From IMG/VR virus record IMGVR_UViG_3300034084_000080, positions 6,631 through 70,630 of that record: a stretch of 64,000 nucleotides of DNA; one strand, 5' to 3'. A model generated the notes under the pieces. That model worked only from the letters and a program-made list of their open reading frames with translations. It searched no databases and had not been told where the DNA came from. The DNA is from a virus. Taxonomy: Duplodnaviria > Caudoviricetes. Made by a program: the position numbers and the translations under genes. This document shows positions 6,490 to 9,278 of this stretch, piece by piece. Every line of letters starts with the position of its first letter. Position 1 is the stretch's first letter.

Positions 6490-6834
6490 ATGACATTTCT
6501 AAACGAACTACAAATCGAATCAGTTATGCTTCATGATGAGTTAGAGAAGCTTACTGATCTTCAAAAATTCATGGATGGCCCTTTGCTTGATGCAATCAAA
6601 TCAAAGAAGGATTATATCAAGGAAAGAATTGAGTACAACCTTAATCTCCAATCAAATCATTGGTTTGAATCTACCTGCTCAGAAAGTGAGGTAGTGAAGA
6701 TGTATTTCAATAATCCTGGTATTACCCAGGAAGAATTGGCCAGAAAGTTTAATACAACCAGTACGGTTGTTTCAAGGTTATTAACAAACAGTTTTAAAAA
6801 ACAAGGATATGGGGAAAATGGTCTTAGAGCATGA
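6490..6834 (+). CDS. HTH-containing protein
   Basis: C-terminal ITQEELARKFNTTSTVVSRLL helix-turn-helix. Confidence 0.6.
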   Translation: MTFLNELQIESVMLHDELEKLTDLQKFMDGPLLDAIKSKKDYIKERIEYNLNLQSNHWFESTCSESEVVKMYFNNPGITQEELARKFNTTSTVVSRLLTNSFKKQGYGENGLRA

Positions 6835-7946: not shown

Positions 7947-8383
7947 TTACTTTGTGTAATTACCGTTTGGATCATTAAAACACTCCGATATTTTTAACTG
8001 TTGTAGCTTTGATTTTATCTCCTCAACATCATCGGTTAAGATTGAGTAATATAAAGCACCACCCATTGAATCCCTGATTTTTTCAGCATCAGCTAACTGT
8101 TTCTCTCCTTCTTCCACAGTGGTAAATTCGAGGTTCTTGTGTAAAAAGTTCATTTTTTGTTGTTACGTTGTTAAATTTATTAATTTTCTATTTCATTTTT
8201 GATATCCATCCAAATTAACTTTATCTTTTCTTCTTCAAAAGGAAGTATTCTACGGTAATTTTTCCCGGAAATCTTCTTGTTAAGTTTTGAATTTGCAACA
8301 TTTAAACTGAGATCAGGGTATAACCTTCGTGCGATCTCTGATCTTTTTACTGCAGGATGATTTAATATTTTATTGATGTCCAT
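7947..8383 (-). other. Two small early ORFs (7947-8153 and 8180-8383, the latter HTH-like)
   Basis: ORF track; VKRSEIARRLYP in the second ORF resembles an HTH. Confidence 0.5.
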
Positions 8384-8392
8384 TTTATAAAG

Positions 8393-8932
8393 TTAAATTA
8401 GTTTCCTTTTTTTAGGTTTGGTCTGCAAACCTGTTTTGTGTGCGTGTAATTGATTTTCACTTTGCGTACACCATTCAAGATTTTCAACTCGATTATCTGT
8501 TTTTATACCATTAATGTGATTTACATGAGGTTTATTACTCTTATTTTCTATAAAGCAAATAGAAACCGCTCTGTGTACTGATATTTTTTTTGTTTTACCG
8601 TTAATTGATAATACAACTCTAAGATATCCACGAGTGGTTAATTCAGGTTTTAAAATCTGTTTGGAACTTTTTACCCTACCTAAATTAGACGCATAATATC
8701 CTTCATAATCAGTTATTGGTTCCCATTTTTCGCCAGGTAATGATTCTATTTTACTAACCTTACTAACGTAGTCACGTTTATTTCTTAATCTACTTAACTG
8801 ATTAATGCAAAGCTTGCAATAGTTCCTCGAATATGTATAATTATGTCCTTTAACTACGCAAGAATATGTTGAAAATTCAGAAATTTGTTTTTCTAAATTG
8901 CACTTTCTGCAAACCTTATTTTGATTTTTCAT
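8393..8932 (-). CDS. NUMOD4-HNH homing endonuclease
   Basis: EKWEPITDYEGYYASNLGRVKS (NUMOD4) plus VNHINGIKTDNRVENLEW (HNH). Confidence 0.9.
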   Translation of the reverse strand: MKNQNKVCRKCNLEKQISEFSTYSCVVKGHNYTYSRNYCKLCINQLSRLRNKRDYVSKVSKIESLPGEKWEPITDYEGYYASNLGRVKSSKQILKPELTTRGYLRVVLSINGKTKKISVHRAVSICFIENKSNKPHVNHINGIKTDNRVENLEWCTQSENQLHAHKTGLQTKPKKRKLI

Positions 8933-9138
8933 TACTCACTTATTTTGCTGAAATAATTAGTTAATTGTGTTGCAACATAAACGATGTTGTGCCTATCGTT
9001 TTGATTTAAACTGCAATAATCATCTGTTGTGATATACCCCAGAAAAATAGTTTGAAATGTTTCTTGTGCCTGATGTGGCTCAATTTGTGAAAACAGTTCA
9101 TTTAGAAGCTGTTCTTTTTGTGTTTTCTCGTTCTGCAT
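8932..9138 (-). CDS. Small protein downstream of RNA switch 1 (paralog of 13190-13393)
   Basis: Shares F-x-GY-x3-D-x2-C-x4-NDR pattern with the 13190-13393 product. Confidence 0.75.
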   Translation of the reverse strand: MQNEKTQKEQLLNELFSQIEPHQAQETFQTIFLGYITTDDYCSLNQNDRHNIVYVATQLTNYFSKISE

Positions 9139-9278
9139 GAGATTTAAAATTTGTAAATAAATGCCCAGGTCGCTGCAGAACGAGCCGGATAACCGGTTGT
9201 TGACGGACTTTCACCGTATCGCCTGGGCTTTATCTTTGTTAGGAAAATTTGAATTGGATCTCTCCGACTCATTCTGCA
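9127..9278 (-). ncRNA. Structured antisense-switch leader 1 (P4 CI / P1 c4-like architecture)
   Basis: Outer stem 9222-9228/9163-9169; hairpin ACGG-TGAAAGT-CCGT at 9203-9217; segment 9174-9194 complementary to 9256-9278 and to the start-codon region 9127-9137. Confidence 0.75.

Follow-up and report, generated by a model that had tools for sequence, protein, structure and literature searches.

Does the leader of a small phage gene carry a switch that opens and closes its own translation start? The question is raised by a 196 nucleotide (nt) gap on the minus strand of a 64,000 nt stretch of viral DNA (Duplodnaviria; Caudoviricetes; positions 6,631 to 70,630 of IMG/VR record IMGVR_UViG_3300034084_000080), which was analysed as a whole and is called the window here. 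The gap separates open reading frame (ORF) 9335-9439 (34 codons) from ORF 8932-9138, which encodes a 68 amino acid (aa) protein with no Pfam family, and it is occupied by a leader of about 140 nt. In a first-pass annotation one segment of this leader, siteB, was proposed to pair either with an upstream site or with the start codon of ORF 8932-9138, and so to switch its translation. We find that the leader belongs to a family of RNA elements in which both pairings are conserved by covariation, and that it is probably a translational gate with a decoy at its 5' end.

Pairing of one segment with two sites

All parts of the leader lie on the minus strand, and its RNA is read from high to low coordinates. 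The sequence at 9174-9184 (TGCAGAACGAG on the plus strand) is the exact reverse complement of 9127-9137, as the first-pass annotation had it. In the RNA, CUCGUUCUGCA (siteB) pairs with UGCAGAACGAG (siteC) from the U of the AUG to position +12, with a duplex energy of -20.1 kcal/mol. The duplex of siteB with the upstream site (9256-9279) has an energy of -32.6 kcal/mol. It had been described as about 18 base pairs (bp), which is close but not exact: it is computed as 16 bp, a 2x1 internal loop and then 4 bp, including G-U pairs. The 21 nt length given to siteB likewise needs revision: the conserved pairing with the upstream siteA comprises 11 bp plus a 4 bp extension, but the far part is better explained by two separate hairpins, Ha and H2. 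Allowing at most one mismatch, the 11-mer occurs five times in the window where 0.47 occurrences are expected, a count reached in none of 100 shuffles; sites A, B and C of this leader account for three of these occurrences. The TAATG overlap that joins the small ORF to a gene for a NUMOD4 and HNH_3 endonuclease (8393-8932, minus strand) is real, and it is present also in the closest relative of the locus, contig L044.

A family of leaders in phages and mobile elements of Bacteroidota

That relative was found by searching a set of 5.8 billion proteins with the 68-aa sequence, which gave a single close match and with it the first independent leader; the same protein search of IMG/VR gave no match, nor did blastn of the region against GenBank phages. 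The L044 leader is nearly identical, with the hairpin loop UGCAAGU, and it lies behind a different upstream gene, the similarity starting at the promoter. Although the small ORFs are 85% identical, the HNH genes that follow them (8393-8932 and L044:1801-2274), TAATG-joined in both, are only 38% identical, an indication that the endonuclease gene turns over in a fixed position behind the leader and small ORF.

Ten more independent copies came from scanning IMG/VR, JGI metagenomes and GTDB genomes with sequence patterns and keeping only matches whose flanking stem closes; all ten lie in Bacteroidota-type DNA of low G+C content. Each of the ten has the same three-site layout and its own 'address', as we call the 11 nt sequence of siteB. 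The strict pattern CGATNCGGTGAAAGTCCG gave only chance matches in IMG/VR, in GC-rich coding DNA. A covariance model (R1) built on the core scaffold recovers copies that the patterns missed, and it scores the focal copy, in which all family features are present, at 90.6 bits (E 5e-19). With this model seven copies are found in a Pedobacter metagenome-assembled genome (MAG), including tandem arrays, ten in another Bacteroidota MAG, and matches in 20 of 151 genomes from the family to which the Pedobacter MAG belongs; 150 genomes sampled randomly across Bacteroidota give no copy other than in the query genome. Genomes and metagenomes together yield 52 model matches, of which 51 are distinct. A relaxed pattern in IMG/VR adds 48 new loci with 37 model matches at E < 0.001, 34 of them distinct, and the family therefore has at least 85 distinct members (51 + 34), carried by Bacteroidota phages and mobile elements.

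The family is a new RNA family that is absent from Rfam 15. With cmscan there is no match at E up to 10 on positions 8700-9700, or at E up to 1 on four other members; Rfam families without a match in the leader include Pedo-repair, radC, STAXI, C4, riboswitches and ribozymes. The literature that we searched holds no description of this leader family.

Covariation of the three sites

The relationship of the three sites is best seen across the family. At least 10 of 11 positions of siteB pair with the 11 nt that begin at the U of an AUG in 42 of the 51 genome-derived copies and 26 of the 34 IMG/VR copies, and one copy, L160, also fits this rule when shifted by one column. Pairing of siteB with siteA at the same threshold is seen in 45 of the 51 and 30 of the 34, respectively. 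The addresses themselves are diverse (33 distinct ones among 42 copies), and the match is specific to each copy: the mean complementary run of siteC is 10.6 nt with its own siteB and 6.4 nt with a foreign one, and that of siteA is 12.4 nt as against 7.0 nt. On a structure-blind MAFFT alignment of 35 modules (A4), which had been pre-filtered for good A and C sites, the 11 pairs of B:C are 99.7% paired, almost all Watson-Crick, with 8 of 11 doubly changed, and the 11 pairs of A:B are 95.3% paired, with 9 of 11 doubly changed. What the first-pass annotation had read from one locus, that the two siteB pairings exclude each other, is upheld here in dozens of independent homologues with differing site sequences, in which covariation conserves both.

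The sites differ from each other in an informative way. SiteA is typically the same as siteC at 10 of 11 positions, and the usual difference is a C to U change opposite a G (22 cases), in which a G-U pair is kept. Such a change keeps a pair only on the sense RNA and would be an A-C mismatch on antisense RNA or DNA, so the constraint acts on the sense RNA. In the copy at L123:4886-4959 siteB and siteC have changed together and siteA has lagged behind, which argues that B:C is under selection of its own.

Architecture of the leader

From 5' to 3' the parts of the module follow in the order promoter, siteA, hairpin Ha, an AU-rich linker, stem P1, hairpins H1 and H2, siteB, a second AU-rich linker, and the AUG with siteC. 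The promoter (9282-9312) is of Bacteroidota type, with a -33 TTG at 9312-9310 and the -7 box CATGTTTG at 9289-9282, which follows the consensus TAnnTTTG (PMC12632263). Across the family a TTT[G/A] box of this type ends 2-3 nt before siteA in 69 of 75 copies. This fixed spacing would place siteA at the 5' end of the RNA or within one or two bases of it, and from the promoter consensus the focal transcript is expected to start at about 9279-9278.

We note that ten copies of one Bacteroidota MAG (L145, L147, L149, L151, L153, L155 and L157-L160) share a conserved element, CCGGTTATCNTCCGACTAG, around the -33 region, some 25-45 nt upstream of the -7 box. The element resembles H2 together with the start of siteB, and it could be an operator or the remnant of a duplicated module.

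SiteA (9268-9278), the putative 5'-terminal decoy, has the sequence UGCAGAAUGAG, a copy of siteC with one C to U change, and it pairs with siteB with one G-U. It is followed by a 4 nt extension, UCGG (9267-9264), which overlaps hairpin Ha, the two together spanning 9254-9267; the core of Ha is GGA-GAGA-UCC (9265-9256), with a GNRA loop. In the family Ha has five pairs that are 93.7% paired, and all five are changed on both sides. The linker from Ha to P1 (9229-9253) is AU-rich and single-stranded, and in the family alignment its length is conserved but its sequence only weakly so.

The core scaffold, on which model R1 is built, extends over 9163-9228 and comprises P1, H1 and H2. P1 consists of 7 bp (GCCCAGG/CCUGGGC, 9228-9222 with 9169-9163), a bulged A (A9170) and an extension of 2 bp (C9221-G9171 and G9220-C9172), the innermost pair of which is G-C in 37 copies, A-U in 14 and never unpaired. 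H1 (9217-9203) has the loop UGAAAGU, UGNAAGU in the family, closed by a G-C or U-A pair; by its pattern (G-UGNAAGU-C, to be compared with G-UUCRANY-C) it may be T-loop-like. H2 (9196-9185) is followed by the 11 nt of siteB, one further nucleotide, and then the 3' strand of the P1 extension and of P1. A second AU-rich linker of 24 nt (9139-9162) leads from P1 to the start codon, a distance of 18-28 nt in the first 14 copies. The AUG (9138-9136), siteC (9137-9127) and a conserved AAAA complete the module (9123-9138), AAAA being present after siteC in 31 of 42 copies. The whole scaffold has 17 pairs, 94.3% paired, of which 16 show double changes, and none of 500 shuffles reaches these values. The conserved scaffold (P1 with its bulged A, the UGNAAGU hairpin and the GNRA hairpin) and the promoter that sets siteA at the 5' terminus add to what the first-pass annotation had described.

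Two mutually exclusive folds and a model of translational control

The 4 nt extension of siteA has an alternative partner in the 3' strand of H2, with which it is 92.9% paired across the family, with covariation. These same 4 nt are the 5' strand of Ha, and the 3' strand of H2 otherwise pairs with the 5' strand of H2. Through the shared strands two folds arise: one with A:B of about 15 bp, in which Ha and H2 are open, and one with B:C of 11 bp, in which both are closed. Nested-only energies, which leave out pseudoknots with P1 and tertiary contacts, are -39.4 (A:B) and -41.2 (B:C) kcal/mol for the focal copy, and on the same basis the two folds differ by -1.7 +/- 4.5 kcal/mol across 41 modules. 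From the topology, either fold should be compatible with P1 as an H-type pseudoknot, and the siteB helix may be able to stack on the P1 extension. The leader is thus shown to have two conserved, mutually exclusive folds that covary and are of near-equal predicted stability. Covariation of both pairings with close fold energies is the signature to be expected of a real conformational switch on translation initiation, and in this respect the evidence favours the interpretation first put forward, of a probable switch at the translation start.

Structure over a start codon lowers initiation. The reading that we prefer, to which we give a probability of roughly 70%, is that B:C is the OFF state and A:B the ON state of a translational gate with a decoy, and that the region 9123-9312 is a self-contained expression cassette consisting of a promoter, a structured leader of about 140 nt and the first five codons. 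We infer that translation is repressed when the AUG is occluded and that the two folds interconvert. In the OFF fold siteB would lie on positions +2 to +12 of the ORF, with H2 and Ha closed and the AUG occluded, and initiation would be blocked on the small ORF and on the TAATG-coupled HNH gene. In the ON fold siteA would take up siteB, extend by 4 bp into H2, open H2 and Ha and free the AUG. On nascent RNA A:B would form first and a new transcript would be translatable: siteA is made first and covers all of siteB, so that a fresh transcript should be ON, and the OFF state would need loss or displacement of siteA. The likeliest trigger would be 5' processing or decay, or slow strand exchange, serving as a timer that limits translation per transcript. 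Next in rank are scaffold RNAs processed from other transcripts, which would act in trans as the CI RNA of phage P4 does, then a protein or small ligand bound to the scaffold, and last no trigger at all, with a fixed partition between the folds. Early, toxic or immunity-type genes would in this way be expressed only briefly and in a self-limiting manner.

Several points weigh against this gate. About one copy in five (~20%) has no clean siteC at the AUG: in L161, L167, L168 and L169 a partial siteC-like match (6-11 nt, shifted into the GCGA junction) is located about 30 nt inside the ORF, in L039 a siteC-like site is upstream of the AUG, and degenerate copies are also among the exceptions. The pattern used in IMG/VR fixed parts of H1 and of the junction between siteB and P1, so that part of their conservation in that set is imposed; in the genome-derived set, where neither was imposed by the search, UGNAAGU is kept in 49 of 51 copies. 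The pairing percentages of A4 come from filtered modules, the unfiltered figures being the counts over 51 and 34 copies given above, and the near-equal energies stand without the contributions of pseudoknots and tertiary contacts. In the second copy that this phage carries, no good -7 box stands at the usual distance of 3 nt from siteA (13506-13560, minus strand). Finally, siteA covers all of siteB in the intact RNA and siteC is left without a toehold, so that a flip purely in cis needs a trigger.

Alternative explanations

Short inverted repeats are common in AT-rich intergenic DNA, and the complementarity could be due to chance or to a repeat that matters only as DNA, for instance a recombination site or an operator, without any function in RNA. 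This reading is already refuted by the covariation of three sites in 85 distinct homologues, by the control with own and foreign siteB, by the tolerance of G-U on the sense strand only, and by scaffold helices that covary to a degree that 0 of 500 shuffles match. It is also very unlikely that the element is static, with A:B and the scaffold protecting the 5' end or fixing a low level of translation and B:C a by-product of a siteA copied from the start region. A paired 5' terminus stabilises bacterial messenger RNAs (mRNAs), and the subgroup with a weak siteC keeps A:B at full length, but B:C is the better conserved of the pairings and almost all Watson-Crick, it was siteB and siteC that co-changed without siteA at L123:4886-4959, and a by-product is not expected to persist through 33 addresses. 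Slightly less improbable, though still unlikely, is a riboswitch-like sensor in which a small molecule or protein bound to the scaffold, at the UGNAAGU loop, bulged A and junction, stabilises one pseudoknot and sets the fold. Near-isoenergetic states could be tipped by a few kcal/mol, the loop and bulge nucleotides of the scaffold are invariant, and both states would, from their topology, be H-type pseudoknots with P1, as in several translational riboswitches. The conserved unpaired nucleotides are few beyond the H1 loop, the bulged A and some junction bases, however, the junctions vary, the regulated genes have no common metabolic theme, and no Rfam riboswitch matches; a new aptamer class is possible.

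A further reading, which we regard as possible but doubtful, is that of an immunity RNA of the P4 or P1 type. The scaffold of about 66 nt (P1 to P1') would be cut out as a stable antisense RNA that acts mainly in trans on siteC and siteA of new transcripts of the same or an incoming element, giving negative feedback or superinfection immunity, with the cis folds being secondary. The order of the sites is that of the P4 leader (seqA, seqB, seqC), where processing of the leader yields the CI RNA, whose pairing partners are seqA and seqC (PMC4825925), and in the C4 fold, too, a stem encloses two hairpins. The scaffold has an AU-rich linker on either side, modules in tandem stand before a primase-type gene in an arrangement loosely like the P4 alpha operon, and addresses differ between modules within a genome; several modules also precede Bro-N antirepressor-like genes, and the C4 RNA of P1 controls icd-ant (PMC8198154). 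On the other hand, siteA and siteB occur one to one on each transcript and form the stronger of the two duplexes, so that a free siteB would need selective loss of siteA. Addresses within a genome are also not fully orthogonal, some cross-pairs reaching 10-11 of 11, and neither address has a further target in this phage. The covariation of Ha and H2 with the siteA extension, together with the narrow spacing from P1 to the AUG, points to an intramolecular geometry, and there is no sequence homology to C4.

Membership of known classes was also considered. The architecture is C4-like, in that an antisense stretch is held in a stem-closed scaffold and complementary sites lie upstream and downstream in the same leader, but membership of Rfam C4 (RF01695) was rejected, there being no cmscan match although the same tool finds C4 in P4 at 74.9 bits. 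The strand order (A, P1-5', H1, B, P1-3') resembles the P1-P2-P3-P1'-P2' order of a hepatitis delta virus (HDV)-like ribozyme; this reading was rejected, since an A:B of 11-15 bp and the long J3/1 do not fit, there is no P1.1 partner in the UGNAAGU loop, and no Rfam model of this or any other small ribozyme matches. A transfer RNA (tRNA) or tRNA-like element was rejected, with none found by ARAGORN in 8900-9500 and no Rfam tRNA match. SiteA starts with AUG, GUG or UUG in 60 of 75 copies and is of CGC type in the rest, but a leader peptide starting there was not accepted: its frame ends at the UGA of the H1 loop here and with a TAG at codon 4 in the second copy, and neither frame nor length is conserved. 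B:C as an external guide or RNase P substrate was rejected, because the GCGA after siteB is paired with the P1 extension and there is no free NCCA; RNase P cleavage 5' of P1 is conceivable.

The second copy and the genes behind the module

This phage carries its second copy of the module at 13382-13531 on the minus strand, with siteA at 13528-13518, siteB at 13434-13424 and siteC at 13392-13382. Its core is 77% identical to that of the first, and it precedes ORF 13190-13393, a paralogue of the gated ORF (67 aa, 24% identity to the 68-aa product), and a DUF6876 gene. The address of this copy, UGCGAACA[U/C]AG, differs from that of the first, and the change is coherent across all three sites. Neither address has another target at a start codon in this phage. 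The nearest promoter-like box, TTTTTA, is about 13 nt upstream of siteA, and the RNA of the second copy may have a short 5' extension or originate from an upstream promoter.

The genes behind the module are varied, and include many small ORFs without a family, RadC-like JAB proteins, SymE_toxin family proteins (in 9 modules), Lin1244_N, DUF1376 and Bro-N antirepressor-like proteins. A primase-type gene (BT4734_N/PriCT_2/DUF927) in the Pedobacter MAG is preceded by modules in tandem, two or three of them, with short ORFs. SymE-type toxins, Bro-N proteins, RadC, an HNH operon and small ORFs before a primase-type gene are kinds usually kept tightly off, which we count as support for the gate. The products begin with M-[Q/R/H/L]-x-x-K, and since these first few residues are common to otherwise unrelated proteins, the first five codons seem to belong to the cassette, and the cassette seems portable. 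Addresses differ between the modules of one genome.

A number of further features are seen among the individual copies. At L123:4886-5505 and L114:5944-6279 complete tandem modules follow one another at intervals of about 270 nt, and each has a promoter and an address of its own; the primase-type gene is here 919-936 aa, and one long frame is open through the repeated leaders. In L161 and L167-L169 a perfect 14 bp A:B pairing is kept, and the siteC-like match coincides with a conserved G-A-A-N-P peptide. In L151:1501-1575 siteC is weakened (9 of 11) and the SymE-like gene downstream is broken by stop codons; leader and gene appear to be decaying together. A tRNA gene is found about 700 nt from a RadC-associated module at L170:2254-2326, which fits an element integrated beside a tRNA.

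Upstream of the focal leader, ORF 9335-9439 encodes a hydrophobic, membrane-like peptide of 34 codons, located between the terminator of a PcfJ-like gene and the module promoter, and it is not present in L044, where similarity begins at the promoter. The FopS small RNA family of Bacteroidetes gives a weak match on the plus strand at 9429-9504 (33.1 bits with a gathering score of 56; E 0.007), and this overlaps the bidirectional terminator hairpin (9467-9488) that follows the PcfJ-like gene.

Comparison with known systems

To our knowledge Bacteroidota do not use Shine-Dalgarno-led initiation, and few cis-regulatory RNAs are known there. The family would show one way in which phages and mobile elements of this phylum may gate translation, with the start codon occluded by a gene-matched 11-mer and an antidote decoy carried in the same leader. 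As a portable cassette of promoter, leader and first five codons, it is placed before SymE-like toxins, Bro-N, RadC, replication genes and an HNH operon. It may represent an immunity or timing system based on RNA in Bacteroidota phages and a natural counterpart of synthetic toehold riboregulators, and it adds a new RNA family for annotation.

Some likeness is seen to several classes of regulated leader. Hairpins over start regions in T4-type phages (gene e, I-TevI, mobE, segB) sequester the translation start, including that of free-standing HNH homing endonuclease genes (PMC3014915), and share with the present family an RNA structure over the translation start of a phage gene. These have two strands and are relieved by a promoter inside the hairpin, whereas the present leaders have three sites, all of them downstream of the promoter, and a conserved scaffold of tertiary appearance. 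In type I toxin-antitoxin mRNAs (symE/SymR, hok/Sok, tisB/IstR) toxin translation is also blocked by RNA pairing at the start, and pairing elements at the 5' or 3' end set the activity of the mRNA; here, by contrast, antisense and target share one strand and one transcript, the antisense being embedded in a conserved scaffold, and no separate antitoxin gene is seen. Riboswitch and attenuator platforms are similar in that mutually exclusive helices decide access to the start region and covariation supports both alternatives, but there is no recognisable ligand-binding aptamer in this family and the sequestering sequence is gene-specific. The nearest engineered analogues are synthetic riboregulators and toehold switches, the activator being fused in cis here.

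Parallels are found also among phage immunity systems. P1 has the a1b1/a2b2 sites, and P22 a sar system. In P1 and P7 (immI: c4-icd-ant) and in P22 (sar-ant), as would be the case here, a small antisense element carried by the operon or next to it blocks translation of the first ORF and hence the antirepressor, with addresses giving specificity; the C4 RNA of P1 blocks the icd-ant genes of its own operon (PMC8198154). Several of the present modules likewise precede Bro-N antirepressor-like genes, but SymE-like, RadC and a large number of unrelated small genes also stand behind the module. The family differs from both systems in phylum and fold, and its processing and action in trans would be putative.

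The P4 immunity leader is the most similar. It contains in Rfam a C4 RNA (8420-8507 of P4), with a closing stem around two hairpins, and an isrK-family RNA upstream. The 10-mer of seqB (8456-8465, inside C4) recurs as seqA at 8642-8651 and as seqC at 8375-8384 (...CACAGGAG, overlapping AGGAG). As in our family, an upstream site, a scaffold-borne antisense stretch and a downstream site at a translation start follow in order on one leader, which stands at the head of the early operon of a temperate mobile element. The two are not similar, however, in sequence or by covariance model. The antisense stretch of P4 is in a hairpin loop and not in a single strand between H2 and P1, its seqC covers a Shine-Dalgarno-like AGGAG and not the AUG and the next 10 nt, and its seqA is part of a separate structured RNA (the isrK family) and not at the 5' terminus. 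P4 moreover acts by transcription termination through a processed, trans-acting RNA, which for the present leaders is at most a candidate mode of action. One could imagine, tentatively, the scaffold as a portable 'programmable clamp', a stable small RNA domain presenting an 11 nt guide between two stacking helices for address-specific immunity or timing in Bacteroidota phages and integrative elements, in cis and in trans, with the 5' decoy as an anti-antisense and the UGNAAGU T-loop and bulged A as a platform for a processing enzyme or partner protein, convergent with P4 CI and P1 c4. Of the systems compared, the leader described here is closest to the CI RNA leader of P4, as an analogue and not as a homologue or a member of the same family.

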